From assembly GCA_965221865.1 (NCBI GenBank), contig OZ244918.1, positions 1,702,816 through 1,766,815 of the forward strand: a DNA stretch of 64,000 bases, written 5' to 3'. Origin of the DNA: Candidatus Poriferisocius sp. Its GTDB lineage: Bacteria > Actinomycetota > Acidimicrobiia > Acidimicrobiales > Bin134. Each line of letters opens with the position of its first letter. The stretch's first letter is position 1. The translations under genes and the position numbers were made by a program. Positions 128-51,882 of the stretch are shown piece after piece. The notes under the pieces were generated by a model. The model saw only the letters and a program-made list of their open reading frames with translations, did no database searches and was not told the origin of the DNA.

Positions 128-1073
128 CTAAATCAAGGTGAACTCCGTCGGTGGTTGCGACGGGTCGGCTATTATAATTGGTTTGATGTTTCTGCGGCCT
201 ATCGGTGGAGGGTTTTGTTGTGGCATAGTGTTTGGGTGTGTGGAGGCGCGCATGTTTTGAGGTGTTGTTACAGCAGGGGTTTATGTAACGCTGAGGTTGT
301 TTTGTGTTTGGGCAGGTGAAAGATCGGTTTGGTGAGTGTTTATTGCTTCACGCTATTGCAGCGGAGTTACGTTGTTTGGGTTACCGGATTTGTGTTGAGA
401 CGATTTGCTGGGCTTGTTATGATTTTTCTAACCGTAGCGGTTTACTATCAAAATGTTGGAAACTGCTGCCTCGTGCTTGGCGGCGTAAACCACCTAGCCG
501 CAGTTCGCAGGGTAGGTGCAGTGTTTTAGGTGATTGGTGTCGTATATGTGAGCGTCCCAGCGAAGCTGATAGCTGGGTTGAGCCTGGTCATTAGCAAGAC
601 GATCTGATTATCACTCAAAAACCATCGCTCAGCTATAGCTACTTTAGCAGAACGCAAAAGCCGTCAAACCTTCAGTGTCAGCTTAGGTGACAGCTACGAT
701 GCTGTTAACACTGCTAACACCTGTCACCCAAGCACTAGCCCAGCAACTTGCACATATGGTGAAAACCCTTCATCTGAGACCACCGCAGAGAAATGACACG
801 GTTAGCTGACATAGAAAAAACCGTCGGTATCAAAGTCTACTTCTGTGAACCCCACTCACCCTCACAACAACCCAACCAACAAACAAACCAACACCTATCC
901 TACGCCGCCCGCTACCCAAACACACCAACCCCAACACCACCAAACCCCTACCAGCAACCATCAAAGACCATATCAAGGTAAACTCCATCAGTGGTTGCAA
1001 CAGGTTAACTGTTAGGACTGGTTTGAATTATCAGCAACCGACCGATGGAATTTACCAATTTGTTGATGGGTGA
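128..1073 (+). mobile_element. Degenerate IS30-family element, copy 1 (transposase pseudogene)
   Basis: IS30-type transposase landmarks appear in order but are spread over several frames with stops. They are ETICWACY, ICERPSEADSWVEPGH*QDDLI (GHWEGDLI box with TGG->TAG), AIATLAERKSR, VYFCEPHSPSQQ (SPWQRG.NEN box) and the LNYQQPTDGIYQF C-terminus. About 97% identical to 2956-3612. Confidence 0.7.
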
Positions 1074-1098
1074 GCCTTGACAGTTTAAGCTTTTTGTT

Positions 1099-1794
1099 AT
1101 GACATACAGTAAGCATTTTTCGCGGCTTCGCATTGTTGCAGCAACCCTTATGGCAGTTGTCCTAGTATCTTTTGTTTTCACAGGGGTGGTTTCAGCTGAT
1201 CCAAAAGCAGATGGCTCGCAGGAGGAGCCTACAAAAGAGACTCCCACAAGCGAAGAGCGCCCCGACGATAACGGTGAGACCAACTCACGACACGAAAATA
1301 AAGAGCCTCAAGATGAAAAATCAGAAGATACCAAAAACAATCATAATCCTCAGGGTGACGAGCAGCCTCAAGATATTCAATTTGATGCAATATGTATATT
1401 GGGGGTTGGCTTTTGTGGCAGTAATGATCCCAAACCTCAGACAGATACCGGTTATAAAAATTGTGGAGGGTTTTTGCTTTCCCAAGTAGGTCTAACTTAT
1501 AGAGCGAATGGCACGAGCTATACTGCTATTCATGCTGTACCAACCAGGTTCGGTAGACTACTGTCAGGATCGTCATATTTAACCATGTACAATGATATAA
1601 GAGGTTGTTTAAATAAGTATAGACTGCTAGAAAGTGTAAAAGTGAGAAGTTGGACATCAATTAGGCAACAGTTAAGCTGCCATCTTCTTGGACAATATTT
1701 TGGTGGAGGAGGTTCAACATGGGATCTAGAAGGATATCGTGATGCTAATTATATTTGGTTAGCTAATGTGGGTGATCATATGTGTAATTGGTAG
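1099..1794 (+). CDS. Secreted protein, DUF2599-like C-terminal domain
   Basis: N-terminal signal peptide (RLRIVAATLMAVVLVSFVFTGVVSA), an acidic low-complexity linker, and a C-terminal region with Q..SCH...WDLEG.R...CNW resembling DUF2599. AT-rich relative to the rest of the window. Confidence 0.5.
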   Translation: MTYSKHFSRLRIVAATLMAVVLVSFVFTGVVSADPKADGSQEEPTKETPTSEERPDDNGETNSRHENKEPQDEKSEDTKNNHNPQGDEQPQDIQFDAICILGVGFCGSNDPKPQTDTGYKNCGGFLLSQVGLTYRANGTSYTAIHAVPTRFGRLLSGSSYLTMYNDIRGCLNKYRLLESVKVRSWTSIRQQLSCHLLGQYFGGGGSTWDLEGYRDANYIWLANVGDHMCNW

Positions 1795-1830
1795 TTTCAA
1801 AAAACTCTAAGCTAGTGTGAAACAGTATTA

Positions 1831-2406
1831 ATGCAACACTATATTGTAAGTAGTCGGTATTACTGGATATTTCACATTAAGCGCCGGCTGTTTGGTTGGT
1901 TATACCATGAGGATAGTCTTGACAAAATCCTGATTCCATGGATTATAGTTTCTCTAGCAATATCATTAGTTCCATTTCATTTATGGCATGTTATTGCAGT
2001 TTTTTTATTATTATTTTATGGGTTTTTCTATCTTAAGATTTCAACTGAGAAAGATTGCAGTGACCTTATCAGGCCATATTGGATGGAACAGCTGCGTACT
2101 CCAGCATTAGTACGTCTTTGGATTCTTGTAACATATTCAGCATGGAGAACAGGTGTATCATTTATTACTGGCTCTGCTCCTAGCTATGAACGTTTGGTTG
2201 ATTTAGAGAAAGGAATTGTTATTCCTTCAACTATGTTTTATATTTGGAAAATAGGTGCTTGGGGTATAGTGATAATTTCAATACTATTTTCAATACAATT
2301 TGCATGGTGGGTGCGCTGGAAACCAATTCTTATCGTAGCTATAATGCTTGTACCAGTTCAATTATGGGTTTGGACTAATCGGATATCGCATGGCCTCATA
2401 TTTTGA
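1831..2406 (+). CDS. Integral membrane protein, unknown function
   Basis: 191-aa ORF with about five hydrophobic helices. AT-rich and co-oriented with 1099-1794. Confidence 0.5.
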   Translation: MQHYIVSSRYYWIFHIKRRLFGWLYHEDSLDKILIPWIIVSLAISLVPFHLWHVIAVFLLLFYGFFYLKISTEKDCSDLIRPYWMEQLRTPALVRLWILVTYSAWRTGVSFITGSAPSYERLVDLEKGIVIPSTMFYIWKIGAWGIVIISILFSIQFAWWVRWKPILIVAIMLVPVQLWVWTNRISHGLIF

Positions 2407-2460
2407 GCCTCAGCGATTTTGTAGGGTGAAGGTTGTTTAGAGATCGGCTATTGCAGTGCA

Positions 2461-2487
2461 GAGCTAACAACCTCTATGGACACTACA
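2461..2487. repeat. 27-bp perfect direct repeat, copy a (gagctaacaacctctatggacactaca)
   Basis: The identical 27-mer occurs again at 4030-4056. The pair brackets IS30-like copy 2 and a 330-bp remnant. Confidence 0.9.
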
Positions 2488-2549
2488 CCTAGCAGGGCAG
2501 GCTCTTCAGCAAAATAATGCTAAAAAATGAGGAGTTCATTTGTGCTTTG

Positions 2550-3698
2550 GCAAGCTCTAGTGGTGGTCGCGACATAGTTGATTGTATATGGTTTGGGCTG
2601 TGTTCGGGTGGTGGAGTTTTCTGGGCATGTTGTTTGGTGAACTCCGTCGGTGGTCGCGACGGGTCGGCTATTATGGTCGGTTTGATGTTTCTGCGGCCTA
2701 TCGTTGGAGGGTTTTGTTGTGGCATAGTGTTTGGGTGTGTGGGGGCGCGCATGTTTTGAGGTGTTGTTACAGCAGGGTTTGAGTGATGCTGGGTTTGGGA
2801 AGTGTTTGGGTAGGAGTCGGGTAACGGTGTGGTGGGAACAGAAGCGTTTCGTTCAGGGCGCGTATCATGCTGAAACCGCTCAAAATGGGGCTGATGGGAA
2901 AGCGTTACGACCGAGGCTGTGTGAACTGGTTGTAGATGGTGAACTTGTTTAGCTGGTGAAAGATCGGTTTGGTGAGTGTTTATCGCTTCACGCTATTGCA
3001 GCGGAGTTACGTTGTTTGGGTTACCGGATTTGTGCCGAGATGATTTGCTGGGCTTGTTATGATTTTTCTAACCGTAGCGGTTTACTATCAAAATGTTGGA
3101 AACTGCTGCCTCGTGCTTGGCGGCGTAAACCACCTAGCCGCAGTTCGCAGGGTAGGTGCAGTGTTTTAGGTGATTGGTGTCGTATATGTGAGCGTCCCAG
3201 CGAAGCTGATAGCTGAGTTGAGCCTGGTCATTAGCAAGGCGATCTGATTATCACCCAAAAACCATCGCTCAGCTATAGCTACTTTAGCAGAACGCAAAAG
3301 CCGTCAAACCTTCAGTGTCAGCTTAGGTGACAGCTACGATGCTGTTAACACTGCTAACACCTGTCACCCAAGCACTAGCCCGGCAACTTGCACATATGGT
3401 GAAAACCCTCATCTGAGACCACCGCAGAGAAATGACACGGTTAGCTGACATAGAAAAAACCGTCGGTATCAAAGTTTACTTCTGTGAACCCCACTCACCA
3501 TGGCAACAACCCAACCAACAAACAAACCAACACCTATCTTACGACGCCCGCTACTCAAACACACCAACCTCAACACCACCAAACCCCTACCAGCAACCAT
3601 CAAAGACCATATCAACAACACACCCAAAAAACCCCACCACCCGAACACAACCCAAACCACACACAACCAACCATGTCACAACCACCACTAGAACTTGC
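2550..3698 (+). mobile_element. Degenerate IS30-family element, copy 2 (transposase pseudogene) with 85-bp terminal inverted repeat
   Basis: Contains N-terminal HTH-like LGRSRVTVWWEQKRF..AYHAETAQ, then the same landmarks as copy 1 (EPGH*QGDLI, VYFCEPHSPWQQ), with stops and frameshifts. 2550-2634 is the reverse complement of 3614-3698 (73/85 identical). Confidence 0.7.
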
Positions 3699-4029
3699 CT
3701 TATTTAGCAGTAATTTTTTGTCCCAGTTGCCAAACCCAATCAGGCGCATTTATAGCGTCATGGTCGCATAAAGCGTTAACTGCCATAGCGATCCGTGTCA
3801 GATCGTGGCGGCGCGGCGTGTGAAACGATGCCACCACCGATGTCGCTGCGGTGGTATTTTCATACTTATTACTCTATGAGCGTGATCTGTGTGCGATCAT
3901 TGCTTGCACAGTTCGCGAAGGTCAACCACACGACCACGCATATCGTTATTACGCATCAGCTCAGGAGTATCAGCAGCTGTGATAGTAGGAACAAACACCA
4001 CACTGACACAGGAGGCTCACCCAAACACG

Positions 4030-4056
4030 GAGCTAACAACCTCTATGGACACTACA
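4030..4056. repeat. 27-bp perfect direct repeat, copy b
   Basis: Identical to 2461-2487. Confidence 0.9.
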
Positions 4057-4164
4057 TGTAGCCGCACATAGGTAGACATATATTTAGTTTAGTACTCTCC
4101 TAGATTGAAGCTATTGCAAAGTGATGTAGATATTTTGATTTAGCCCATTAGTGTTAATACTCGT

Positions 4165-5868: not shown

Positions 5869-7176
5869 ATGCAGAAACTTGATCCGTGGGAAGAAGGACT
5901 CGCCAAATCTGCAAACAGTCCATTTACACCTGCTTTTGGAACTGCACCTACCACTATGGTTGGCAGGGACGACTTGATTCGATCCATAGCTAGTGGATTT
6001 CAAGACCGGGCAGGTTCCCCTGGGCATTCTCCACTTGTGTTTGGTGCTCGCGGGACTGGTAAAACGTCTTTACTTCACTCAATCTGCGAATCGGCTGCTA
6101 GAAGCGGGTGGCTAACGCTATCTCTGGATGCTGGCAGTCCAGGACTGTTGAAACGTGTTGATGCTGCTATTGAGTGGGCGGTACGCGAGTCTGGGCATCA
6201 ATCCCTTGAAGATATTTCTTCTGATTCTTTGTCTCGGCTAAACCATCTGCAATTTTTAGGTGTAGGAGCTGGGTGGGAGCCAAAAAGACGCGACACGAAC
6301 CCAGTCAACTACACAATCCGTGAGCGCTTAGCAAAACTAACAAAAGCGGTAGCTGCAAATGGTGGACGTGTGCTTATCACAGTAGATGAAATGCATAACA
6401 TTAGGCTCACGGAAGCGCGTCGGTTTTGTAACGATTTGCAACATATAACCAAAGGCGACGAGTTGCCTCTTTTATTTCTCGGAGCGGGTTTCCCAATGAT
6501 GAGAGAAGGGATACTTAAAGATAGTCGGCTCTCATTTTTTAGGCGTTCCGATCTTTACGATATTGCGGCACTTACTATCAATGACGCGCTTGAAGGGATA
6601 GAACAGCCGATATTAGAAGCAGGCGGGACGATCAGTGAAGAAGCATTACAGATCGCAGCAGAGGGTTCTGTTGGTAAATATCCATATATGCTTCAGCTGA
6701 TAGGGGATCACGCGTGGAAAGCGGCCGGAGCGCCTTTAGGTCGTATAGAGGTAAAGCACGCAGAGCGGGCAGTAGAGGCGGCTAGAAAAGAGTTTGACGA
6801 TAAAATATCAGCTCCTTCTTGGTCTGATTTATCTGACGCTGAGCAAGATTTCATGGCAGGTCTAGCTTCGCTGGGGGGAAAAGCCGAATCAGCTCAAGTA
6901 AGAACCGCTTCAGGTTTGATCCCACGCACTGCTAGAAGAATTCAACTGCGACTAACGATCGGTGGGTATATCACAGAAGATAGGGGTTTCTTGGAAATCA
7001 CCGATCTCGTTTCACGAGAATCGGTGTCAGCGTTCTTTTCCCCAGATTTACTTGAAAACAGGCAGAGCACAGCGCATGTTGCGGGGAAGCGCCAGTGTAA
7101 TAAATGGATGCCGCGTGCCCGACAACCTTGCGTGTTGGCATTGAATCATAAAGGACCATGCCGCTCTCATATTTAA
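5869..7176 (+). CDS. AAA/STAND-like NTPase with C-terminal wHTH-like region
   Basis: Walker A GARGTGKTSLL and Walker B LITVDEMH. 435 aa. Confidence 0.55.
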   Translation: MQKLDPWEEGLAKSANSPFTPAFGTAPTTMVGRDDLIRSIASGFQDRAGSPGHSPLVFGARGTGKTSLLHSICESAARSGWLTLSLDAGSPGLLKRVDAAIEWAVRESGHQSLEDISSDSLSRLNHLQFLGVGAGWEPKRRDTNPVNYTIRERLAKLTKAVAANGGRVLITVDEMHNIRLTEARRFCNDLQHITKGDELPLLFLGAGFPMMREGILKDSRLSFFRRSDLYDIAALTINDALEGIEQPILEAGGTISEEALQIAAEGSVGKYPYMLQLIGDHAWKAAGAPLGRIEVKHAERAVEAARKEFDDKISAPSWSDLSDAEQDFMAGLASLGGKAESAQVRTASGLIPRTARRIQLRLTIGGYITEDRGFLEITDLVSRESVSAFFSPDLLENRQSTAHVAGKRQCNKWMPRARQPCVLALNHKGPCRSHI

Positions 7177-7236
7177 TACACACCAGCCCTCAGCACAGCA
7201 TTACCGCCACGGATACACTCTTTGACCTGCATGTGA

Positions 7237-7941
7237 TGGGATCCCCCCCCCTTAGACGACATCAGCCGAACCGATATCACCCAAGTAGAAGACGTGCAAC
7301 GCGACCCTGTCGGCGTCCGTAGACTGCTAACTTCGTTGGGGCGTAACACCGGCGCCAAAGCATCTTTGCGAACACTGTCTCAAGACGCTTCTAAGGATCG
7401 AGATGTGGCTATGCATCCCCGAACTATTAAGGCATACTTACAAGCGCTTGAGCGCTTGTTTGTGGTTGAAGATTTGCTGGCATGGCAACCGCATCTTCGG
7501 TCGCGAATAGCTTTACGCACAACTCCAGTTCGCCATTTCGTATGCCCCTCTCTCGCTGTTGTCGCTTTGCGTACCAACAGCACTCGCCTGCGAGCCGATT
7601 TGAGGTTCTTCGGTTGTCTCTTTGAATCGCTTGTTGTGCGTGATCTTCGCATCTACTCACAGATTGAGGGCTGCCTTCTCTCCCACTATCGAGACGAATA
7701 CGGCTTAGAAGTAGATGTGATTTTAGAAAGAGCCTACGGAGAGTGGGCTGCATTCGAAATCAAACTAGGAAGCCAGGCAGTCATCATGGAAGGAATCGAG
7801 TCGCTTCGCATGCTAAAAGATCGCGTTAACACCAAACGTATAGGGGAACCCAGCAAGCTAGCAGTAATCACTGCAACAGGCATTGGTGGGGAGTTGCCTG
7901 ACAACATAGCAGTCATACCCATCACAGCCCTCGGCCCCTGA
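7237..7941 (+). pseudogene. DUF4143-domain ATPase, 5'-truncated C-terminal fragment
   Basis: The region DI..V.RDP..VRRLL..L..N.G...S...L......HPRTIKAYL.ALE.LF resembles the DUF4143 C-terminal half of AAA_14 proteins. The N-terminal ATPase half is absent. The frame opens just after a stop at 7234-7236 and runs through a C9 tract (7243-7251); the first start codon is GTG 7294. Confidence 0.5.
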
Positions 7942-8216
7942 CGGCTCACATAGCCAAAACAACCAACTCAACAAACTGTCAGTACCTAATAAACCGGCGC
8001 CCCTACTGTAAACACGTTCCATTGCAGCATTCAAAACCTCACACGGCAGCCGCCCAAACAATTCCAGTCTCAAGTTCTCAGTCAATAGCGACTCTTTCTC
8101 GGATTCCGGCAAAAACACCGGAACTAACTATCTCAGACCACACCCTTCACACAGACAATCTGACAGTCTCCCAGCAAGCATTTTCGACATGCTTTAACCT
8201 TTGAATAAATTGGGTA

Positions 8217-8705
8217 TTATTGCCCCAAGACAAACCGCGCTTTTTCTTCCCGCAACATCTCGTAGGGGTTTATAAATGTGACCCCGACTCCACGACAAGC
8301 TTCGGGAATTTTGATCTTTTTCAACGACTCGCTAGATGCCTCATGCGTCACCACAATACAGTCATTAGCATGGGCTTGGGCTACTAGGTAATAGTCGGTA
8401 CTTTGTAAAAATTCGGAGACTCCAGCTGATGTGTATTTTTGGCTGTTTGCCCACCCGCTAACCAAACTTAAGCTGTCACTGATCAAGTCGCTTTCAAGAG
8501 GAAAAAGGTCAGGTCTCCGCCCAGCCCATTCGGCGAGTTCATCCTCCTTAGCTTGAATTCCATCGCCTACTTTTTTGATGCTGAAAACTTTGCCCGCTTC
8601 ATTTTGCTGATCCAGCCAATCCCAGAATGCTGGGCAGAATTCGAATCCGTAATGCAGGTTCTTTGCCTGAATAAAGACGTTGGTATCTAGCAGATAAGTT
8701 GTCAT
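8217..8705 (-). CDS. DUF4411 (PIN-like) family protein
   Basis: N-terminus YLLDTNVFIQAKNLHYGFEFCPAFWDWL is typical of DUF4411. Its start overlaps the stop of the upstream ImmA gene. Confidence 0.7.
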   Translation of the reverse strand: MTTYLLDTNVFIQAKNLHYGFEFCPAFWDWLDQQNEAGKVFSIKKVGDGIQAKEDELAEWAGRRPDLFPLESDLISDSLSLVSGWANSQKYTSAGVSEFLQSTDYYLVAQAHANDCIVVTHEASSESLKKIKIPEACRGVGVTFINPYEMLREEKARFVLGQ

Positions 8706-9847
8706 ATCACTTCAAGCTGCTTGCAGAGTTTGTCGAAGGTGGATTGTTTTTTGAGTCCAAGCATATTGAAGGCATCTGTGTAGAGTGTTTGCCCTTCAAG
8801 GGTGTTAGCGATCACTGAACGTGTGAATTGTTTGGAGACTCTTGTAAGCAGTGTGTTGCAGAAGTTGCCTCCGCTATTTTTTGTGGGTAACAAGTCCATC
8901 ACTCGCGCTAGTTCAGTTTGATATGTGTTTTGGTAGCTATTCCAGTCAAGATATCTCGCTTCATGCACTTGATGTAACACTACAAGAGTGCTTGATTTGA
9001 AATGATGTGCTAGCCGATCTAGCTCATCAATTAAGGGTGCATTGACATCAAAAGCTGTACGTAACTCTTGTAATGGCACTAGAACTTCTGCGGCAACGCT
9101 ATTGCACCACCGTTCTATCTCATTTGTGGTTCGCGCTCTGAGGTTGAAATCTGACAAAGCGCTCTCACCAAGCCAGATATGGGCTAGTTCATGTACAAGA
9201 GTGAATGTTTGTGCTGCCTGCGTGTCCGCTCTGTTGATAAATACCAGCGGTGCCACTGAGTCTACTAGTGCAAAACCCCTGAACTCTTCAGGATTCAACT
9301 TGCGGTGGGTGTTGCTGCCAACAACACCACTCACCATGACTAGCACACCGATTGCCTCAGCTTGATCACGTAGGTAGGTAAATGTACCCGCCCAACCTGC
9401 TTCTCGCTTTTCCGATCCAAAAGAAAGTGCTTCTGTAATCTCTGCACCTGCTGCAACGGGATCAACTTCAGTAGTAAGTGAACCAACTTGAGACACCTCA
9501 TTGAGCCCGATAGTACGAGCGTAATCCCGGTACCAGTCCTGTCGTTGTTGACATTGGTAAATAGTGTCTAGGAGGTCCGGGCTCGGACGAACAGCTGAGC
9601 GGTCGCCGATGGTACGAAAGTCGGGAATGGGTATGTCTTCTTTTGGTGGTACTGCCAAGAAGAGGTAGCCAACCGGCGTGCGTGTTGCCCTTGCAAAGTT
9701 TTCCAGCTGCTTCAAAGTTGGGTTCACCTCACCAGACTCCCACTGATACAACTTAGGAAACTTTTGAATTAGCAAGTCCGCGTCAAGGCCAGAGCGCGCG
9801 CGTGCCCATGCCAGCAAAGCGGGCTCAACTGTAACCTGAACTGTCAC
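8702..9847 (-). CDS. HTH (XRE-like) + ImmA/IrrE zinc metallopeptidase
   Basis: N-terminal HTH-like segment and the HEXXH motif HELAHIWLG. The usual partner gene of DUF4411. Confidence 0.75.
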   Translation of the reverse strand: MTVQVTVEPALLAWARARSGLDADLLIQKFPKLYQWESGEVNPTLKQLENFARATRTPVGYLFLAVPPKEDIPIPDFRTIGDRSAVRPSPDLLDTIYQCQQRQDWYRDYARTIGLNEVSQVGSLTTEVDPVAAGAEITEALSFGSEKREAGWAGTFTYLRDQAEAIGVLVMVSGVVGSNTHRKLNPEEFRGFALVDSVAPLVFINRADTQAAQTFTLVHELAHIWLGESALSDFNLRARTTNEIERWCNSVAAEVLVPLQELRTAFDVNAPLIDELDRLAHHFKSSTLVVLHQVHEARYLDWNSYQNTYQTELARVMDLLPTKNSGGNFCNTLLTRVSKQFTRSVIANTLEGQTLYTDAFNMLGLKKQSTFDKLCKQLEVI

Positions 9848-9867
9848 GCTCGTTTAGCCTGTATTGC
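9787..9867. repeat. 81-bp direct repeat, copy 1 (covers the real 5' end of the ImmA gene)
   Basis: Near-identical to 10611-10691, with a few mismatches clustered in the first 20 nt. Confidence 0.9.
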
Positions 9868-9883
9868 TAATACTCATTTTCTC

Positions 9884-10300
9884 TTAGTTGGGCGAAGTGG
9901 TTTGCTTGGCTCCAGGGGAAACAATTGCTACTCCATGATTGGCCGCTGCGTGTGCCATTCTAGAGTCATAGGTAACAATGCCTTGAAGTTCATGGCCGAA
10001 TTCAAGTGCTGTTGTTAAATGAATTGCGTCTAGGGAACGTAGCGAGGGCGGGTCAAGCAAACCTGCTAGTTTGAATATGCGCTCCCCTAATCGGATAAGT
10101 TGGATTGCGCCAAGTACTTCCTTAGCTAACTTAATGTGTTCAGAGGATTGTCTGTGAGCTGCTCTGAGAAGTTCTGTTTGCACAAGGTCCCCGGCTATCA
10201 AGATTCGTTCTTTTTGCGTGAGCCAAGATTTAAGTGCGTTTGTCTCTGGTTCTGCGGTGATCAGTGTCACAAGGGCAGATGTATCAATGTAAAACGGCAT
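9884..10300 (-). CDS. vapC: Type II toxin VapC (PIN domain)
   Basis: MPFYIDTSAL.., with acidic PIN residues (IDTS, QTEL, SLDAIHL, TYD). ATG at 10300 lies 1 nt after the antitoxin stop. The longer ORF-track start (10360) overlaps the antitoxin. Confidence 0.85.
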   Translation of the reverse strand: MPFYIDTSALVTLITAEPETNALKSWLTQKERILIAGDLVQTELLRAAHRQSSEHIKLAKEVLGAIQLIRLGERIFKLAGLLDPPSLRSLDAIHLTTALEFGHELQGIVTYDSRMAHAAANHGVAIVSPGAKQTTSPN

Positions 10301-10301
10301 C

Positions 10302-10574
10302 TTAGCAGCGTTCATCTTCGCGCATTTCAGCAAGTGTTTTTGACATACTCGGACCTGCAATAGGATCGGATAACTCTGCTATGCTTCTTTGAATAGGTGT
10401 TGTCAAACCGGCATCGATTAGTTCTTGTAAGCGAGACTTTGGGATTGGTGTCAACAGAGCCACTGGATGCCCGCGACTGGTTATTGTGACGATTTCACCT
10501 GCTGCTGCAGTAGCCACCACTGCTGATGCGTTTTGTTTGAGCGACCTAATGCCCACTTCAGTCATGTGCATCAT
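10302..10574 (-). CDS. Type II antitoxin, Phd/YefM family
   Basis: MTEVGIRSLKQNASAVV...GEIVTITSRGHPVALL is typical of Phd/YefM. The start is uncertain (ATG 10574/10571/10565 or TTG 10598). Confidence 0.8.
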   Translation of the reverse strand: MMHMTEVGIRSLKQNASAVVATAAAGEIVTITSRGHPVALLTPIPKSRLQELIDAGLTTPIQRSIAELSDPIAGPSMSKTLAEMREDERC

Positions 10575-43696: not shown

Positions 43697-43860
43697 GCCC
43701 TAAAGACTACACCCAATTGACAGACTTGCTAAAGAGCAGTGTATTTACAAATAGGGGGGGGGCAGCTCACTGTTGAGTTTTTTCTTATGATTATGGTGGT
43801 GTTGTTGGTTGGGGGTGGGGTTGTGGTATGCTTTTTGGATGCGTTTTTTCGGGTTTTTAG

Positions 43861-46800
43861 TTGGTGGTGTTGTGTGTGGGTTTGCGCGTCTTGTTGCTGT
43901 TGTGGGGGGGGGGGGGGGCAGGTTTGGTGAGGTGTCTGAGGTTGGGTGGTTGGTTGCGTAAGGTTTTGCGCGTGCGGGGGTTTGTTGCTGCGGCACTGGC
44001 CGCGGTGTTGTTTGGGGTGTTGTTTGGGGTGTTGGCGCCTGGTTCTGTTGGGGCGCAAACTTCGTCTGTGGTGTCTTCTACTGGTGATAGTGCGGTGGAG
44101 GTAGGCGAGGGTTCCGTGGCTGTTGTTGGGTTTAGTGTGTCGCCTCCGGTGGATTCGGAGGTGTGGCTTCGGTTTTGTTTTGAGAGTTCTTTAGCTGATT
44201 CTAATTTTTCTAATCTGCAGACTCAAATTGGTAATATGAACGTGTCTTTGGATAATAATGGTTGTTTTGATGGCCAGACGGTAACTGTTACCGTGGCCGG
44301 GGCGACGACTCAGTCAGCTACTATTAGGTTTCAGCCTTTGACTAATACGGTGGATGATCTTGATGAGGTTGTTACTGTTACGGTGAGTGAGGATCCTGAT
44401 AATCCGTTGCCTGATGGTGTAAGTATCGATGCTGAGGCTGATTCGGTGTCGAGGAAGATTGTGGATGAAGATCCGACGGTGGTGTCGTTGGCTCGTTCGG
44501 GTTCGGGGGCGATCACCGAAGGCGGGTCAGCGGAGTTAACGGTGAGTTTGGGTCGTGAGCTTGTTGCGGGTGAGATGGTGGGTGTGCCGTTGGCTATTAG
44601 CGGTACGAATGTGACGACCGCGGACTATGATTTGGTGTTGAAGGAAGGACAGGGGCTCAACACTGGCGTTGAGTTGTCGGGTGTGTCAACAACCGAACCG
44701 CATTTGAGTTTTTCTGGTGCTGGCGCGCAGACAGCAACTTTGCTGCTGACAGCGTTGCTAAATAATGATACGGGTGCTGAAACAGTAACAGTCGCGTTGG
44801 GGCCTGATGATGCGACTGCTAACGGTTTTGATCGCCCAGCGTTAGAGACGAACGTAAGTGGCGGTGTTAACCGGTCAAGCACGCAGAATAGTGTGAATGT
44901 GACAGTGAACGATCCTGCTGCGCCTGCTGCGCCTAGGTTATCGTTGGCTCAAGCTGGTGATGGGCAGGTGTATTTGTCGTGGGCTAATCCGGTTAATAGT
45001 TTGATTACTGGTTATGAGTTTCAACGCCGCCCAAGCGGCGGTGAGTGGGGTTCAGCGAAAGGGATTGTTGGTAGTAACGCTAATACCATTACTTATGTGG
45101 TAACCGGTCTCACTAATGACACGGCTTACACTTTCCGGGTGCGCGCTGTGTCTGGTAATACGGATGGGGCGTGGTCGGATGCGTCTGCTGCTGTGACACC
45201 AACGTCTGCTTCTACTGCTAGACCGGCTGTTCCAACGAATTTGGCGGCTGTTGCCGGTGACTCACAAGTAGTGTTAACGTGGGATAACCCGGGTAACACG
45301 GCGATTACTAGTTATGAGGTTCGTCAAAGAACTGGGTCCGCTGATTGGGGTACGTGGGCTGCTATTGCTTCTAGCAGCGCTACTACTGTTACCCATACTG
45401 TTACCGGGTTAACTAACGGTGTGACATATCAGTTTCAAGTACGTGCCGCTACTGGAAACCAAGACGCGTTGAAAAGTTTAACGCCAACAGATTTTTTCGC
45501 TGAAGCTACCCCCAGACCGGCACCACCAACGTTGCTGGTGTCGTCAAGGTCTGCGTTGCGGGTGCCTGAGGGGACGACAACTTTAGGGTATAATATTGTG
45601 TTGTCCCGGGCGTTGACGGCTGATGATCCTGCTGTGTTGGAGTTTGAGATAGCTGTTTCTGGCACTGCTACGCGTGGTACGGATTACTCGTTTTCGTCTG
45701 ATTCTAATTTGAGTGGCACAGGTGTGAGTGTGGTTAACACTGCGGGTAAGGGTAACCCTGTGATTCGTATTGACCGGGCCGCGTTCGGTCTCACTCGAAG
45801 AGGTAGCACTGCTGGGTTGATTATCAACGTGAATCCTGATAGTGATACGGAATCGACTGATGAGACGATTGTACTAACAACACCAGGCACCACCCTCACC
45901 CACATGATTTATGATGCGCCTGCGTCTGTTGAAGCTAAGTTCGCTTTAGCTTCTTCTACTTACGCTGAAGGTTTCGGTCCTTTAACGGTTGTTGTTCAAT
46001 TGAGCGCGTTAACAGGCCGGGATTTGGTGTTCCCCATATTATACCCGTCGGCTACTACAACAGCGGTAGCGAATGTTGATTACACACCGGTTAACAGTTT
46101 CACGGTGAAAGCTAATGGGCAGTTAACTCATTCTTTGGTTATTCCTTATGTTGATAATGATGTTGATGAGCCTAATAAAACGTTGTCTGTGATGTTGGGT
46201 GCTGCGCCTTCGGGTGCTACTAAGGCCACAACAGACACTATGACGGTGACTATTGCTGATAATGATGCAACAACAGTCGCTTTAGCGGTGGCAGATACTA
46301 CGTTGCGTGAAGACACTGACACTCGTTTGACTGTCACTTTGAGTCGTGATTTAGTGGCTGGTGAAATAGTGCGGGTGCCTTTGACTGTAAGCGGAACTGG
46401 TGTGACAGCTGATGATTACACGTTGGAGTTGGCTTCGGATGCGGGGTTGAACACGGGTGTTAGGTTGAACATTGCCTCTCCTTTTAGTGCTGCTTCACCG
46501 CAGGTAGTGTTCACAGGTAGTAGCGGCACCGAACAGGTCGCTACTTTGGTGTTGAGCGCTTCCTATGATGCTACCTCTGAGGGTGCGGAGACGTTGCAGG
46601 TTGGTTTCGGTGCGGTTACAAGCAATTTAGCTCACCCGGATCGGTCTACGTTTACTGCTGCTGGTACTACTGCGGGTGCCCCGGTTGATGTGACAGTGAA
46701 TAATTTGGATGCCCCAGCAGCGCCTACAGGACTCGCCGCGACTGCGGGGGACACGCAAGTGTCGCTGGTTTGGGATGATCCGGGTAATAATTTGATTACT

Positions 46801-49800: not shown

Positions 49801-51861
49801 AATGTTCCGTTCCGTTTGTTGATCGATGATGTAGGTTTAGTGGGTTTAGCTGATTTCACTATTCACAATGGTGATACTACTAGTTCAGCTAGTTTGAAAG
49901 CTCCTAACGACCGGTATGATGAACCAACTAAACAAGCATGGACAGCGGAATTGAACACTGCGTTGCTACCCGAAAATCATGTTGCTGATACATCTCGGGT
50001 GGCATTTACTGTTACAGATAATGATCCGACCACGGTTACTCTCAACGGGCTTGCAGGTGATATCGCTGAGGACACGGTGAAACGATTTACAATCACCCTT
50101 AACCGCGGGTTAGTAGCCGGTGAAACCTTGCCTGTACCTTTGGTTTTTGGTGGTACTGCTACCCGCAACGCGGATTACACTACTGCTTGCCCTGATCCTT
50201 TGCCGGTGGGAATACAATGCAATAATCTTGATACCGCTGAGACGCCGACTGTAACATTCACTGGCCCTCAACAAGGTGTAACAGCCCGTTCGGTTACTTT
50301 AACAGTCACCGCCCAAGCAGACCTATACACTGAAAACGACGAAACTCTGCGCATCGCTTTAGCACCCCTAAACGCTGATTCTGGTGACGGTTTAGGCGGC
50401 GGCGCGGTTGCTGTCAACGATTTTGATGCGTTCAACATCACAGACACCACCGACCCAGCAACCGCAATACAACCACCCCCAGAAGACCCTGAAGAACCTG
50501 TTGATCCTGAACCTGAAACAGTACCAACAACGCCCATATATCAAGTACCCACCAGCCTCATAGCTGATGTGCGCGGTTACGCTGCTGAAACTCACAATGG
50601 TGCCGCGCATGTGCGCCGTTGGCAACAAGTCTTGTTAGCGTTCGGTGACACCGTTAATGGGTTCACCGGCGCTCCGATCACTCTCACCGAAGCGCGAACC
50701 TATGCGCAACAGTTCTGGAGTGTTCGCTGGGATCCGGTAGTTGAAGCACTACAACAACTCGCCAACAACCCCCAACCCCAACCCACCGCAACACCTCAAC
50801 CCACTCCAACATCCACACCAACACCATCTGTTTACACCGTGCCAGCCAGCCTCATAGCTGATGTGCGCGGTTACGCTGCTGAAACTCACAATGGTGCCGC
50901 GCACGTGCGCCGTTGGCAAAGAGTCTTGCTCGCGTTCGGTGAAGACGTGCCAGGCTTCACTGGCACCCCGATCACCCTCACTCAAGCGCGAACCTATGCG
51001 CAACAGTTCTGGGGCAGCCGCTGGGATCCTGTAGTTGAAGCATTGCAACAACTCGCCAACAACCCGCCACCCCAACCTAACGACCCGTCGCCTAACAATC
51101 CGCCGCCTAACAATCCTTCAGTTGACCCACAGCCAAAACCTGTGCTGCCCAGAATCGGTGTTACAGCACCCACCGATATCACCGAAGGCCAAACCGCCGA
51201 TTTCACATTCACCGCTGTGTCCGCCCCCGCAACCCCGCTCACTGTCACTGTCAACATAATCACAACAGGTGATTATGGCATCACCGCTGGCAGCCGCACC
51301 GTGACCATAGACACCAACGGCACCGCCACACTGTCACTAGCTACCATTGGTGACAGCGTTGACGAACCAAACGGCACTATCACCGTCACACTTACCACCA
51401 GTAACACCTATAATGTTGACTCTGCTGCTGCGACTGCGACGGTTACTATCGCAGACGACGACGCACCAGTACAAACCACAAGCACACCTATTATTTCTAT
51501 AGCCGACCAAACCATCACCGAAGGCACCTCCTGTCGTACCCCCGCCCCCTGGTCCTGCCTCAACTTATACCCTGTCACTGTCACTTTGAACCAACCCCAC
51601 CACCAAAGCGTGTGGGTCTCATTCACCATCACCCAACTCGGACAAGGAACAGGCTATGCCACCGCGAACCAAGACTTCGCCGCACGCGACCGAAGAAGCT
51701 TCATCATCGCCGCAGGCCAAACCACCAAAAACATATACGTCAACATCAAAGACGACAACACCAAAGAACCCGACGAAACCTTCCAAATCACCCTACACAA
51801 CCCCCTCCGCGGACAAATCGGCGACGGACAAGCCACCATCACCATCAAAGACAACGACTAA
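43861..51861 (+). CDS. Giant secreted Calx-beta-like/FN3 repeat protein (2666 aa as listed; likely start GTG 43972)
   Basis: Signal-peptide-like RGFVAAALAAVLFGVLFGVLAPGSVGA-QT. Contains two FN3 pairs, many Calx-beta-like modules (..DNDATTV.., VD.DVDEPN.TL.V.L), three super-repeats and two 98-aa C-terminal modules. An AAGG lies 8 nt before 43972. Confidence 0.85.
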   Translation: MVVLCVGLRVLLLLWGGGGAGLVRCLRLGGWLRKVLRVRGFVAAALAAVLFGVLFGVLAPGSVGAQTSSVVSSTGDSAVEVGEGSVAVVGFSVSPPVDSEVWLRFCFESSLADSNFSNLQTQIGNMNVSLDNNGCFDGQTVTVTVAGATTQSATIRFQPLTNTVDDLDEVVTVTVSEDPDNPLPDGVSIDAEADSVSRKIVDEDPTVVSLARSGSGAITEGGSAELTVSLGRELVAGEMVGVPLAISGTNVTTADYDLVLKEGQGLNTGVELSGVSTTEPHLSFSGAGAQTATLLLTALLNNDTGAETVTVALGPDDATANGFDRPALETNVSGGVNRSSTQNSVNVTVNDPAAPAAPRLSLAQAGDGQVYLSWANPVNSLITGYEFQRRPSGGEWGSAKGIVGSNANTITYVVTGLTNDTAYTFRVRAVSGNTDGAWSDASAAVTPTSASTARPAVPTNLAAVAGDSQVVLTWDNPGNTAITSYEVRQRTGSADWGTWAAIASSSATTVTHTVTGLTNGVTYQFQVRAATGNQDALKSLTPTDFFAEATPRPAPPTLLVSSRSALRVPEGTTTLGYNIVLSRALTADDPAVLEFEIAVSGTATRGTDYSFSSDSNLSGTGVSVVNTAGKGNPVIRIDRAAFGLTRRGSTAGLIINVNPDSDTESTDETIVLTTPGTTLTHMIYDAPASVEAKFALASSTYAEGFGPLTVVVQLSALTGRDLVFPILYPSATTTAVANVDYTPVNSFTVKANGQLTHSLVIPYVDNDVDEPNKTLSVMLGAAPSGATKATTDTMTVTIADNDATTVALAVADTTLREDTDTRLTVTLSRDLVAGEIVRVPLTVSGTGVTADDYTLELASDAGLNTGVRLNIASPFSAASPQVVFTGSSGTEQVATLVLSASYDATSEGAETLQVGFGAVTSNLAHPDRSTFTAAGTTAGAPVDVTVNNLDAPAAPTGLAATAGDTQVSLVWDDPGNNLITGYQFRRGSGDPFSWGTHKGVANSDASTTSYVVTSLTNSTEYSFQVRALINSVEGAWSSTVKATPTSSSTAPPAAPSNVTATAGDTQVVLTWANPGNAAITGYEVRQRAGSSGSWGSWAAIASSSATTVTHTATGLTNGIEYSFEVRAVAGTTQGAASVTVTATPMIEPPILNLFRRPPARLPEGTITDTNFDFRLSRALTSDDPALVDLEVAVSGTATRNVDYQFFSSGTVAGVSVLNTAGTGNLVLRINRATFGTTSQAVSVKLGIRVLPDNTVESSDETIILTPAGGSARTFSVYDAPASVEVNVEQSRLRASTLENRSLHLTLVLDAATGKDLVFPVSYSGTATSGSDYTPVDSFTVKANGRLTHSLVIPYVDDDVDETNETVTVMLGDAPSGATKGSTDTATFTIVDNDATTVTMKLAGRAGIEENTSTQLTVSLSRDLVTGEEVWVPLTVSGTGVTADDYTFSLASGTGLNTGVTLNTTAPYSAALPQVLITGGSAVERFATLTLSAADDSTAENTETLSIGYGSVESNLDRLDASIFSTGGTTTAGAPVTVQISDEATGPTLLFTRTGTGTRLPEGTTLVEHNFVLSRRLNGTDPQVLEYEIGLGGTATRGADYTLRFVSQARHSDGVTVINTAGSSNPVLRINRTVFGSRLTRGTVGLVLSVTADNTVESAAETITLTTSGGSLAYTIYDAPASVEAKFTRAAYGYQEGNRVFTVVIQLNEPTGKDLVFPLSYPQPTTAVSGVDYTPVDSYTVKANGELNHAISFLYNDNNLDELTKTLTVMLGAAPDGVTKGTPDTATVTIYDNTPTAVTLAVNGSSSIEEDTSTQLTVTLGRDLVAGEIVRVPLTVSGTGVTADDYTLELASDAGVNTGVTLNTANPYSAAEPQIVFTGGSSVERVATLVLKAVADNDDTETSETMTISFGSVTSNLDQINPSVFDGSGTAAGEPVEILLGAAVLTLSVDSGTANPTEVVEGELLMITVTRSQANRTGADINVPFRLLIDDVGLVGLADFTIHNGDTTSSASLKAPNDRYDEPTKQAWTAELNTALLPENHVADTSRVAFTVTDNDPTTVTLNGLAGDIAEDTVKRFTITLNRGLVAGETLPVPLVFGGTATRNADYTTACPDPLPVGIQCNNLDTAETPTVTFTGPQQGVTARSVTLTVTAQADLYTENDETLRIALAPLNADSGDGLGGGAVAVNDFDAFNITDTTDPATAIQPPPEDPEEPVDPEPETVPTTPIYQVPTSLIADVRGYAAETHNGAAHVRRWQQVLLAFGDTVNGFTGAPITLTEARTYAQQFWSVRWDPVVEALQQLANNPQPQPTATPQPTPTSTPTPSVYTVPASLIADVRGYAAETHNGAAHVRRWQRVLLAFGEDVPGFTGTPITLTQARTYAQQFWGSRWDPVVEALQQLANNPPPQPNDPSPNNPPPNNPSVDPQPKPVLPRIGVTAPTDITEGQTADFTFTAVSAPATPLTVTVNIITTGDYGITAGSRTVTIDTNGTATLSLATIGDSVDEPNGTITVTLTTSNTYNVDSAAATATVTIADDDAPVQTTSTPIISIADQTITEGTSCRTPAPWSCLNLYPVTVTLNQPHHQSVWVSFTITQLGQGTGYATANQDFAARDRRSFIIAAGQTTKNIYVNIKDDNTKEPDETFQITLHNPLRGQIGDGQATITIKDND
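43904..43918 (+). repeat. Homopolymeric G15 tract in the giant gene 1 leader / extreme 5' end
   Basis: Counted directly. Lies 54 nt upstream of GTG 43972, where a signal-peptide-like sequence starts. A G9 run is at 43754-43762. Confidence 0.95.
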
Positions 51862-51882
51862 CCCCGTTGGGGGTTAGTCGTT
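51853..51882. terminator. 13-bp perfect palindromic hairpin between convergent genes (bidirectional terminator candidate)
   Basis: aacgactaacccc-gttg-ggggttagtcgtt. Both stop codons (51859-61 and 51874-76) lie inside the stem. There is no U-tract. Confidence 0.5.

Follow-up and report, generated by a model that had tools for sequence, protein, structure and literature searches.

Mirrored G+T and C+A gradients on dead IS30-family copies: a local case of a wider mutation pattern in Acidimicrobiia

Why should a dead insertion sequence be rich in G and T at one end, rich in C and A at the other and ordinary in between? The question arises in a 64,000-nucleotide stretch of the genome of Candidatus Poriferisocius sp. 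(contig OZ244918.1; the whole stretch is called the window below). There an initial annotation, made from the letters alone, described such a remnant and offered three origins for its polarity: the displaced strand of end-initiated strand-displacement replication, single-stranded 5' overhangs, or the non-template strand of inward transcription. Here, we ask whether a mutational process is at work, how far it reaches and what might drive it.

The IS30-family copies and their composition

The left part of the window holds two dead IS30-family copies, at 137 to 976 and 2636 to 3699, with two short end fragments. The features are as follows.

137 to 976, plus strand: copy 1, a pseudogene with a 142-bp internal deletion that lacks the last ~85 bp of the element; G+T-rich at the left, C+A-rich at the right
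977 to 1056, plus strand: solo 80-bp left-end fragment, with the left terminal repeat and an internal inverted copy of that repeat
2550 to 2634, minus strand: inverted 85-bp right-end fragment (the "left arm"), with C-terminal coding sequence and the right terminal repeat; it abuts the true left end at 2636
2636 to 3699, plus strand: copy 2, full length and dead, with stop codons and frameshifts
3614 to 3698, plus strand: right arm, the natural right end of copy 2, with 11 to 12 extra C>T or A>G changes on the minus strand and a plus-strand G+T of 0.13 to 0.15

Elements of the IS30 family carry one ORF of ~320 to 380 amino acids that encodes a DDE (rve-type) transposase with N-terminal helix-turn-helix domains, are bounded by imperfect terminal inverted repeats of roughly 20 to 40 bp and generate a short (2 to 3 bp) target-site duplication. 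The pseudo-translation of copy 2 matches IS30 family transposases at 49 to 52% identity (PF00665 and PF13936), and its rve score of 34.5 bits lies above the Pfam gathering threshold of 32.6, while a reconstruction of a third copy (copy 3) reached 60.7 bits. The remnant is thus indeed IS30-like, as first annotated, with a DDE transposase of the rve type. Relatives in the searched genome contigs are 63 to 66% identical across residues 1 to 323. The two ends of copy 3 (L005, from 9884 onward, against the reverse complement of the sequence ending at 10951) agree at ~33 of 38 positions, as terminal inverted repeats of this family do, and living copies in Poriferisodalis-type MAGs terminate in GGTGGTTGCAA / TTGCAACCACC; the 85-bp repeat is distinct from these terminal repeats. 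No clear target-site duplication was seen at the edges of copy 3 or of the 137 to 4078 island, where the copies are old and rearranged. A hairpin lies just upstream of the start codon at the IS left end.

None of the copies can be considered intact. Stop codons and frameshifts interrupt all three, which have in common a TGG>TAG change in the GHW motif, and for this genome the protein database holds no full-length copy, only ORF fragments of 105 to 216 amino acids. Copy 1 aligns to copy 2 at 95 to 98% and is missing from strain C.

Along copy 2, G+T in successive 100-bp windows reads 0.75, 0.81, 0.62, 0.65, 0.67, 0.59, 0.44, 0.43, 0.38, 0.15 and 0.13, compared with 0.51 just outside the copy and a mean of 0.54 (sd 0.096) for the whole window. 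This profile reproduces the mirror gradient, the ordinary centre near 3200 to 3430 and the sharp outer edges that had been described. Copy 1 runs from 0.66 to 0.77 at its left down to 0.23 to 0.27. The mirror gradient recurs in L092, which was assembled independently from a different sample, and is therefore no artefact of a single assembly; a sequencing artefact is ruled out by the occurrence of the tracts in four independent assemblies from different samples.

Direction of change in the arms and in the dead copies

The most direct indication of a process comes from the inverted repeat. Position by position, 2550 to 2634 and the reverse complement of 3614 to 3698 differ at 12 of 85 sites. Going from the left arm to the right arm, the latter read on its own strand, six of these are C>T and six A>G, without a single transversion or reverse transition (two-sided binomial p = 0.0005 for the direction), exactly as first counted. 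A repeat search returns the same pair as an 86-nt inverted repeat, 2549 to 2634 and 3614 to 3699. An outgroup alignment had been proposed as a check; copy 3 sides with the left arm at 11 of the 12 sites, so that the right arm is derived at 11. The annotation had also taken the two arms for the terminal inverted repeats of the element, and this does not stand: the left arm is an inverted fragment almost identical to the right end of the less mutated copy 3, from whose reverse complement it differs at 5 of 85 sites. Because 2550 to 2634 is an inverted right-end fragment and the real left end is at 2636, the comparison is one between two lineages of right ends, rather than between two arms that diverged in place. 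The data nevertheless support the view that the arm differences are the product of a directional, strand-specific transition process.

Could the skew have been inherited in its entirety, as amino-acid or codon composition, with the 12 differences reflecting ordinary divergence or gene conversion? The intact relatives already carry a strong gradient (G+T 0.55 to 0.63 in the first fifth and 0.24 to 0.35 in the last), the left arm derives from another, less mutated lineage, and gene conversion between copies is frequent. The initial claim that the pattern is "not inherited composition" is to that extent too strong. In intact IS30-type ORFs, however, the gradient is located at 4-fold synonymous sites, where G+T along the gene reads 0.65, 0.63, 0.51, 0.34, 0.26 and 0.21, which makes it mutational even in these copies and not a matter of amino-acid composition. 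Moreover, the dead copies exceed every intact relative, with a last-fifth G+T of 0.12 versus 0.24 to 0.35; invariant G and T residues have been lost specifically in the right arm; and a run of 12 out of 12 unidirectional transitions is unlike ordinary divergence. A purely inherited origin is scarcely tenable and already largely refuted.

The direction in the dead copies was polarised against columns that are invariant among 17 intact relatives. These replaced parsimony among the three IS copies, which proved misleading because strongly directional mutation yields parallel changes. In the last quarter of copy 2, 8 of 20 invariant G sites have become A and 8 of 23 T sites have become C, whereas only 2 of 49 C sites have become T and none of 28 A sites has become G; in the first half the bias is reversed. 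Hence, the remnant owes a large part of its skew to inheritance and drifted on when the protein was no longer under selection. The shared stop codon, the lack of a recorded full-length copy and the loss of conserved residues in the expected direction support the view that the mutation process ran on after the element had died.

The short fragments behave differently from the long copies. The solo 80-bp end has a G+T of 0.51, whereas the three long copies have 0.71 to 0.73 over these 80 bp; it carries A or C at sites where they have G or T, and its composition lies near the unmutated state. Likewise, the 85-bp fragment shows 0 to 1 derived changes, versus 11 to 12 in the full copy. Taken together, the mirror composition results from C>T and A>G changes on the strand that begins, read 5' to 3', at the edge of a repeated unit; they are strongest at that edge and fade inward.

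Reach across insertion sequences, host lineages and giant genes

In many Acidimicrobiia genomes, intact relatives of the element show the gradient at synonymous sites. The ten ORFs in the flanks with the steepest gradient are transposases of IS1182/IS5, IS630, IS1380, ISAzo13 and IS4-like types, in which 4-fold G+T declines nearly linearly from 0.76 down to 0.17 to 0.24. The IS30, IS5, IS1 and IS3 elements of E. coli are flat, without a gradient, and the IS30 copies of Streptomyces, Rhodococcus, Gordonia and Mycobacterium lack a comparable monotonic fall. Multi-copy ORFs show 4-fold G+T by thirds of 0.605, 0.438 and 0.265, versus 0.523, 0.479 and 0.442 for single-copy ORFs (Mann-Whitney p = 2e-9); single-copy genes in the Acidimicrobiia loci lean weakly in the same direction (median +0.06, p = 6e-9). 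The housekeeping genes of the window are flat, as are rpoB, rpoC, fusA, tuf and an ordinary five-gene operon in 4-fold G+T, and in ordinary genes G+T does not generally step up past start or stop codons. As to sequence context, no effect of the preceding base on mutated C and A was found at the 4-fold sites of 28 transposase ORFs. Within the 5' third, T/(T+C) at these sites is 0.34 after C, 0.30 after G and 0.32 after T; a dip before A is the sole signal. Among living copies, two families have rare variants with the expected bias, and only in the left half; the living family OZ246894 is a recent burst in which variants are almost absent. The bias is thus a property of the host lineage rather than of this element, and the remnant is a local example of a broader pattern of mutation in Acidimicrobiia that has apparently not been described. 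No description of a mirrored G+T / C+A pattern was found in the literature searched.

This reach bears on the origins first proposed, none of which is specifically supported, as the signature occurs in at least five other IS families and in non-mobile giant genes. Explanations tied to the IS30 ends or to end-initiated replication are disfavoured because the other families, with their different transposition chemistry, and the giant genes share the signature. One-strand C>T and A>G changes, graded by single-stranded exposure, generate a similar G+T / C+A asymmetry on the heavy strand of vertebrate mitochondrial DNA. The spectrum and its grading are the same here. The mitochondrial gradient, however, arises because an entire small genome is replicated from one origin by strand displacement, whereas the present units are chromosomal repeats of 1 to 4 kb with two mirrored arms. 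The sequence shows no sign of end-initiated replication, and the giant-gene units are chromosomal and without IS-like ends.

A broader variant would add mutations in each, possibly abortive, transposition cycle, either through strand-displacement or gap-repair synthesis from the flank 3'-OH by an error-prone polymerase that forms G.T mispairs, or through a transposase nick followed by an exonuclease that exposes the strand with its 5' end at the terminus. Its polarity fits, as that strand would be newly made or exposed, and so do the sharp edges at the termini. DDE transposases all share 3'-end nicking and repair of target gaps, and this common chemistry would explain why many IS families are affected. 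Yet the onsets of the giant-gene tracts do not resemble IS ends, not even when compared in purine/pyrimidine space; dead copies kept gaining directional changes with no intact cognate transposase from this genome on record; the gradient is missing from E. coli IS elements and from most other actinobacterial IS30 copies; and it is nearly linear across the whole element instead of forming short end patches. Such end processing seems to us quite unlikely.

The giant surface-protein genes of the window carry the following tracts.

43770 to 44700, plus strand: G+T tract (up to 0.90) over the leader and 5' end of the 2,666-aa fn3 / Calx-beta gene; begins right after a poly-G run
50400 to 51860, plus strand: C+A tract (G+T 0.22 to 0.46) over the 3'-terminal part of the 2,666-aa gene, with an abrupt right limit at the stop codon and terminator hairpin
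58757 to 61500, plus strand: extreme G+T tract over the leader and first ~2.3 kb of the 11,004-aa gene; peak of 0.965 at 59201 to 59400
62100 to 62800, plus strand: C+A zone (G+T 0.27 to 0.44) inside the 11,004-aa gene, just inside ~63000, the right limit of the segment that is nearly identical to a paralogous giant gene

LamG, fn3 and GH20-like motifs remain readable within the extreme tract, which is also present in strains B, C and D and thus conserved in four assemblies. An equivalent of the C+A zone occurs in L005 (19400 to 20000) and L085 (14400 to 15000). Two giant genes are only ~0.4% apart within a genome over 59147 to 63000, while orthologues from different strains differ more, and this homogenised segment has its G+T arm at the left and its C+A zone at the right. 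The tract of the 11,004-aa gene, however, sets in at 58757, ~390 bp upstream of the paralogue homology limit at 59147, and no repeat partner was detected for these ~390 bp, in purine/pyrimidine space or otherwise. For the 3' C+A arm of the 2,666-aa gene, paralogues in the genome reach only 44 to 50% amino-acid identity, and the internal repeats of that gene, 67 to 87% identical, are a poor substrate for homologous recombination. The ~250 bp that follow this gene (51861 to 52100) are G+T-rich. Strain-specific changes in the giant gene, in small counts from three strains, do not point clearly one way; G<->T changes prevail there simply because hardly any other bases are left than G and T. The upstream parts of the giant genes are unrelated to one another. 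By eye, 58742 and 43762 resembled the IS terminal repeat and suggested IS remnants, but alignment was no better than with shuffles. Local alignment of the tracts against both IS copies in purine/pyrimidine space gave z values of -1.7 to 0.3, and a lone z of 3.6 for a 150-bp piece merely equalled the best shuffle. Separately, a C+A patch lies at 7900 to 8200 between convergent genes.

These tracts bring transcription back into consideration. Inward, poorly translated transcription, in the sense direction from the 5' edge and as antisense or read-through entering from the 3' edge, might leave the non-template strand single-stranded, possibly in R-loops that a G-rich strand would stabilise by itself, and open to deamination, with Rho-type termination producing the inward fade. 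In transcription asymmetry, AID hypermutation and switch R-loops, a G+T excess of the non-template strand near the start fades over 1 to 2 kb, and G-richness stabilises R-loops; the 5' tracts of the giant genes have the same appearance, as they fade over 1 to 2.5 kb much like somatic hypermutation. They begin in leaders, that of the 11,004-aa gene 16 nt past the upstream stop codon and that at 43770 just after a plausible promoter region, and transcription would account for the 390 bp upstream of the homology limit. The composition flips exactly at the stop codons and terminator of a convergent pair near 51860, and convergent genes also border the 7900 to 8200 patch. The hairpin at the IS left end is presumably of the type that keeps read-in transcripts untranslated, and the weak gradient of single-copy Acidimicrobiia genes would fit as well. 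On the other hand, the highly expressed rpoB, rpoC, fusA and tuf and the five-gene operon are flat, so that intensity does not scale with transcription, and no general G+T jump follows start or stop codons. Promoter and terminator scans at the tract edges, including consensus promoter-like sites, gave nothing above chance. The model would have to assume an unexplained antisense start within the giant gene, near 62900, and, for every IS family, a right end with a promoter pointing inward or with read-in; neither the contrast of multi-copy with single-copy ORFs nor the sparing of short fragments is predicted. AID, furthermore, acts on C only and in WRC context, whereas here both A and C are converted without context preference, highly expressed genes are spared and each unit has the opposite skew at its far end. 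A transcriptional origin, the main rival of the reading that we prefer, is possible but, in our view, doubtful.

Recombining repeats, proposed strand exposure and possible dedicated mutators

As our tentative preference, the repeats recombine with one another and the single-stranded DNA of the resulting D-loops, bounded by the limits of homology, is deaminated at C and A. In frequently recombining repeats, a broken copy would invade an intact copy, with D-loop extension limited to the reach of the homology. For a break at a random position x, the plus strand of the donor would be single-stranded from the left border to x and the minus strand from x to the right border. Deamination would convert exposed C to U and A to hypoxanthine, read as T and G, and the sum over many events would be a mirror gradient, nearly linear and cut off sharply at the repeat borders. 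Such geometry would affect multi-copy DNA only and leave very short fragments mostly untouched. The high deamination load would stem from a lineage-specific factor: weak uracil or hypoxanthine repair, a single-strand DNA deaminase or nitrosative chemistry. Such a factor is required because E. coli IS elements, which are also multi-copy and recombining, show no gradient.

Recombination between IS copies does take place. Of the 57 differences that separate strains W and D over 5 kb, 55 fall in the two IS copies, and 37 of 52 substitutions convert one copy to the sequence of another, in tracts. We infer the link between recombination and mutation from geometry and co-occurrence; no single event was observed. 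The D-loop model is supported by the direction and strand of the changes, their continuation in the dead copies, the position of the two arms on the homogenised giant-gene segment, the dependence on repetition, the flat housekeeping genes, the sparing of short fragments and the lineage-wide reach beyond IS30. Against it stand the 390-bp tract outside the homology, the divergent paralogues and repeats of the 2,666-aa gene, the lack of direction among strain changes in the giant gene and the restriction of the bias among living-copy variants to the left half. In yeast break-induced replication, single-stranded DNA of the D-loop donor strand is a deaminase substrate (PMC9262586), and for kataegis at resected breaks and during such replication, including the D-loop template strand, donor DNA is a demonstrated target (PMC9262586). 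Kataegis resembles the present pattern in the deamination of recombination-derived single strands and in the switch of the mutated strand across a point. It differs in comprising single events in yeast or tumours, with APOBEC acting at TC. In the present case, we see a steady state in bacterial repeats that also involves A and ends at homology borders, and neither an APOBEC-type TC context nor another fixed dinucleotide context is found.

One may also think of a dedicated hypermutation system, analogous to RIP or somatic hypermutation, in which an enzyme acting on A and C is directed at repeats and giant genes as a defence or as a generator of diversity. The targets, IS elements of many families and variable giant surface genes, would suit it, as would the near saturation (96% G+T) and stability of the tracts across strains, the restriction to a lineage and the survival of coding motifs within tracts, as expected of genes in use. 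However, no deaminase or other candidate gene was present among the window ORFs scanned, the context preference typical of most deaminases is absent and the giant-gene tracts show no excess of directional change between strains. Active targeting, as opposed to passive exposure of single strands, is not indicated by any result, and we regard a dedicated system as very unlikely.

RIP in Neurospora and other fungi introduces transitions into repeated or mobile DNA, with fairly sharp limits and some leakage into flanks, and kills transposons. Transition hypermutation of such DNA, limits at the repeat and transposon death are shared with the present case. RIP, however, is a premeiotic process that causes C>T only, prefers CpA and has no mirror polarity, whereas here A>G is as frequent as C>T, on opposite strands in the two arms and without a C>T/CpA signature. 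As regards confinement to duplicates, multi-copy ORFs are strongly and single-copy ORFs weakly affected, and the giant-gene tract extends 390 bp beyond known homology in the accessible loci. Diversity-generating retroelements likewise cause targeted hypermutation of large bacterial surface-protein genes. They work with a reverse transcriptase and a template repeat, by which adenine is replaced with any base in short C-terminal variable regions, whereas the changes observed here are transitions only, span kilobases and hit A as well as C; the scan of window ORFs revealed no reverse-transcriptase domain.

If the pattern is genome-wide, it would represent a strong, position-dependent and seemingly undescribed bacterial mutation bias that shapes and kills many transposon families across a whole class of Actinomycetota and leaves kilobases of functional giant genes above 90% G+T while their domain motifs survive. 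Composition would then record strand exposure, making ectopic recombination or R-loops in uncultured symbionts readable from sequence. The tracts will mislead composition-based gene finders, skew-based origin predictions and binning tools. For base editing, the bias is of interest as a possible pointer to a natural enzyme or repair deficit acting on both of the bases A and C in DNA. Finally, and unlikely as we consider it, Acidimicrobiia, including this low-GC, probably sponge-type symbiont, may have an active system for converting A and C wherever repeats, mobile DNA or giant surface-protein genes expose a single strand; a DNA deaminase of dual specificity or a mutator polymerase dedicated to the task would be its agent. 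Such a system would be a bacterial counterpart of both fungal RIP and vertebrate somatic hypermutation, in which transposons are inactivated and the 5' parts of adhesin-like giant genes are driven into a coding space of only Gly, Val, Trp and Leu.

Structure and polarity of the IS30-family copies

The two dead IS30-family elements in the window, copy 1 and copy 2, were aligned with copy 3, a less mutated copy in the close relative strain B (locus L005, 9884-10951). The region has the following anatomy.

137-976: copy 1, truncated exactly where the 85-bp piece starts
977-1056: solo left end, 80 bp, directly after copy 1, of normal composition
1099-1794 and 1831-2406: AT-rich ORFs without Pfam hits
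2550-2634: inverted IS right-end fragment (last transposase codons and right terminal repeat), the 85 bp left of 2636
2636-3699: copy 2, with its true left end at 2636 (ggtgaactcc...)
46-110: junction repeat, inverted at 2485-2549
2461-2493: junction repeat, direct at 4030-4062

Translated, copy 2 is an IS30-type transposase full of stops and frameshifts; its homologues are IS30 family transposases and its rve domain scores above the Pfam threshold, in agreement with the family originally proposed. The mirror gradient described in the initial annotation is reproduced: G+T falls from 0.75-0.81 to 0.13-0.15 along copy 2, with an ordinary centre and a value of 0.51 directly outside the element. 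Copy 1 has a gradient of the same form. Likewise, the gap-free alignment of 2550-2634 with reverse-complemented 3614-3698 has 12 mismatched positions, six of them C>T and the other six A>G. These arms had been taken for one element's own repeat pair, but alignment with copy 3 identifies them as the right ends of two lineages. The inverted fragment differs from the right end of copy 3 at only 5 of 85 positions. In the natural right end of copy 2 there are another 11 changes, each of them C>T or A>G read on that end's own strand; the remaining, 12th arm mismatch is best explained as a parallel C>T. The direction of change deduced from the arms was therefore correct. The solo left end has a G+T of 0.51, compared with 0.71-0.73 for the equivalent segment of the long copies.

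In this left end (977-1056, and the first 80 bp of the long copies), the left terminal repeat is followed ~55 bp on by its inverted copy, shortly before the start codon of the transposase, so that a hairpin can form. In other IS elements, hairpins of this type prevent read-in transcripts from being translated.

Changes in copy 2 were polarised on 368 alignment columns that are (nearly) invariant across 17 intact relatives.

Polarised changes in copy 2 (changed positions of all positions with the ancestral base)
First half: G>A, 5 of 66 G; T>C, 0 of 23 T; C>T, 6 of 30 C; A>G, 4 of 16 A
Last quarter: G>A, 8 of 20 G; T>C, 8 of 23 T; C>T, 2 of 49 C; A>G, 0 of 28 A

Against this outgroup both the G+T-rich and the C+A-rich states are derived, and since they destroy conserved residues they arose in non-functional copies. 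The protein database contains no full-length copy from the source genome, although proteins of the contig are deposited there (all those looked up map to a single contig of 2,929,842 bp, present in NCBI and ENA), and a TGG>TAG stop is common to all three copies; hence, the process went on without a cognate transposase. The arm spectrum, copy 3, and the invariant columns together bear out the original inference of a strand-specific, unidirectional process.

Block 137-4078 (copy 1, the AT-rich ORFs, copy 2, and a further 380 bp) is missing from strain C, a relative represented by a 2.75-Mb contig of about 96-99% identity, where ~350 bp of other sequence takes its place (L093, 9567-9914). It looks like a composite-transposon-like island. 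Strain B is known from a 111-kb contig (99.7% identity) and strain D from contigs of 5-9 kb; the relatives' contig names are metaMDBG-style, so these are presumably long-read assemblies. The source organism is probably a low-GC (49%) member of the Acidimicrobiia, given that the closest intact relatives of the transposase all come from MAGs of this class (Candidatus Poriferisodalis, Ca. Aldehydirespirator, and others). The window also holds rpoB, rpoC, fusA, and tuf-sized ORFs, and the called genes at tuf loci agree with this neighbourhood. A defence or toxin-antitoxin-type cluster at 5869-10360 encodes an AAA_16 ATPase, DUF4143, DUF4411 with an ImmA/IrrE-type M78 peptidase, and a PIN domain protein; the DUF4143 and DUF4411 genes are convergent, and G+T is 0.29-0.37 at 7900-8200, a C+A-rich patch between them. 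ORF 57869-58741 encodes a RelB-domain protein with C-terminal His/Asp/Glu-rich repeats (58360-58510; HDEYAEHTH and variants, ~7 copies), an unusual, metal-binding-looking tail for an antitoxin-like protein.

Gene conversion and distribution of the gradient

Recombination between dead paralogous IS copies is directly visible. Between strain W, the window's own genome, and strain D (L092, a separate assembly from another sample), 55 of the 57 differences in 5 kb lie inside the two IS copies and 2 in the intervening 1.5 kb. The strains are nearly identical elsewhere; divergence is 2.9% for the IS copies versus 0.13% for the unique DNA between them. Of the 52 substitutions, 37 give one copy the sequence of another copy, and these 37 are arranged in tracts.

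337-478: patchy conversion tract, towards the copy-3 type
2781-3255: patchy conversion tract, towards copy 1

The gradient itself is largely inherited and lineage-wide. Among 18 intact ORFs of the IS30 subfamily from many genomes, G+T drops from 0.55-0.63 over the first fifth to 0.24-0.35 over the last. Along the gene, 4-fold degenerate third positions have G+T values of 0.65, 0.63, 0.51, 0.34, 0.26, 0.21; T/(T+C) declines there from 0.36 to 0.08, and G/(G+A) declines from 0.89 to 0.43. The cause is therefore mutational and does not lie in amino-acid composition. The statement that the bias is not inherited is thus half right: the inherited share is large, as the graded intact relatives indicate, whereas the invariant columns show that the dead copies are derived further.

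The steepest ORFs flanking the IS30 loci are transposases of other families (IS1182/IS5-type, IS630, IS1380, ISAzo13, and IS4-like), with 4-fold G+T values per 150-nt step of 0.76, 0.71, 0.60, 0.43, 0.44, 0.29, 0.17, 0.24, and 0.20. Multi-copy ORFs are graded far more strongly (4-fold G+T by thirds 0.605 / 0.438 / 0.265) than single-copy ORFs (0.523 / 0.479 / 0.442; p = 2e-9). In single-copy ORFs from the flanks of the Acidimicrobiia loci L006-L084, 4-fold G+T also declines slightly, yet significantly, from 5' to 3' (median first-minus-last third 0.06; Wilcoxon p = 6e-9), which may reflect a general gene-level effect or unrecognised mobile genes. Ordinary genes, including highly expressed ones, are flat, as are IS30, IS5, IS1, and IS3 of E. 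coli K-12, and no comparable monotonic gradient was found in IS30-family copies on Streptomyces, Rhodococcus, Gordonia, and Mycobacterium plasmids. The sole graded copy among the non-Acidimicrobiia IS30-family copies tested (L089; Leifsonia sp. ZF2019 plasmid NZ_CP065038.1, 91992-92966) has 4-fold G+T thirds of 0.66 / 0.43 / 0.32, and the phenomenon may thus extend beyond a single class.

Giant genes and other non-mobile tracts

Tracts with this signature also occur in genes that are not mobile.

58757-61500: G+T tract, 2.7 kb, maximum 96.5%, leader and start of the 11,004-aa gene
Start of the 2,666-aa fn3 / Calx-beta gene: G+T tract, 0.9 kb
End of the 2,666-aa gene: C+A tract, 1.5 kb, with an exact switch to G+T where the stop codon and terminator lie

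They recur in strains B, C, and D and are therefore real and old. Within the 11,004-aa gene tract, LamG-like, fn3-like, and GH20-like motifs are still recognisable by eye, and the remaining A and C sit in Asp, Glu, Arg, Ser, and Tyr codons, a placement that suggests that the gene is still under selection. Its first ~3.9 kb, from a poly-G run on, are common to the 9,948-aa paralogue. Within strain B the giant paralogues differ by ~0.4% over 59147-63000 and by ~8.5% beyond; over the same segment between-strain orthologues diverge more than paralogues do, so that it must have been homogenised by gene conversion. On its left side the homogenised segment has a G+T arm; just within its right limit lies a C+A zone (62100-62800).

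Giant ORFs of 11,004, 9,948, and 12,573 aa (window 59200-64000 and beyond; L003, L005, L085) are present in a genome of <3 Mb. The first combines LamG-like, fn3-like, GH20-like, and Calx-beta-like parts, and the window giant gene is 9-17% divergent between strains, compared with only 1.4% for adjoining housekeeping genes. Poly-G runs mark G+T tract onsets: 43754-43763 (10), 43905-43919 (15), and 59147-59157 (11) in the window, the last being the exact start of giant-gene homology, and 27 bases in the strain B paralogous giant gene (L005, 16399-16425). Run length is not constant across paralogues or across strains, a hint of slippage or phase variation. The near-pure G+T leader upstream of the giant gene has two copies of the motif ggggaacagatttt (58822-58835 and 58852-58865), spaced 30 bp apart; because both retain A and C, the motif is a candidate site for protein or RNA binding.

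Possible origin and significance

Recombination, inward transcription, and end processing all give the correct polarity. Inward untranslated transcription with R-loops would account for the leader tracts and for the composition flips at stop codons, but it leaves the sparing of highly expressed genes, the internal C+A zone, and the copy-number dependence unexplained, and we consider it rather unlikely. Transposition-linked end processing fits the IS elements, and only these; it is hard to square with dead copies, non-mobile targets, and the E. coli controls, and seems to us very improbable.

Our tentative preference, which we hold to be possible rather than probable, is for D-loops formed in ectopic recombination. 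Here, if one copy breaks at position x, its 3' tail would invade another copy, with the homology border as the limit that the D-loop cannot cross. Over all x, the donor plus strand would be single-stranded mainly at the left and the minus strand mainly at the right, and deamination of C and A on the exposed strands, presumably rather than G.T misincorporation, would yield the observed pattern. In yeast, donor DNA in the D-loop gets deaminated (PMC9262586). Such D-loop geometry could explain the near-linear gradient in elements of 1-1.7 kb and its sharp edges. Likewise, recombination could explain why only multi-copy DNA is affected, irrespective of transposase family, why the process went on in dead copies, why fragments of 80-85 bp are spared, and why the pattern coincides with the homogenised giant-gene segment. 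Against D-loops speak the 390 bp by which the G+T tract extends upstream of the point where paralogue homology begins and the 2,666-aa gene ends, which lack close repeats; an additional lineage factor would also be required.

The spectrum matches those of the single-strand deamination gradients of mitochondrial DNA and transcribed mammalian genes, the target set is reminiscent of RIP, and the strand switch of kataegis; the full defining feature set of none of these is found here. Full-text literature searches turned up no account of G+T / C+A gradients of mirror polarity in IS elements or giant genes of bacteria. We rate the pattern as a known kind of process, strand-asymmetric transition mutagenesis of exposed single strands, in a new form, and a dedicated system behind it is a real possibility. 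The phenomenon is far wider than the initial annotation implied, extending to other IS families, other genomes, and giant genes.
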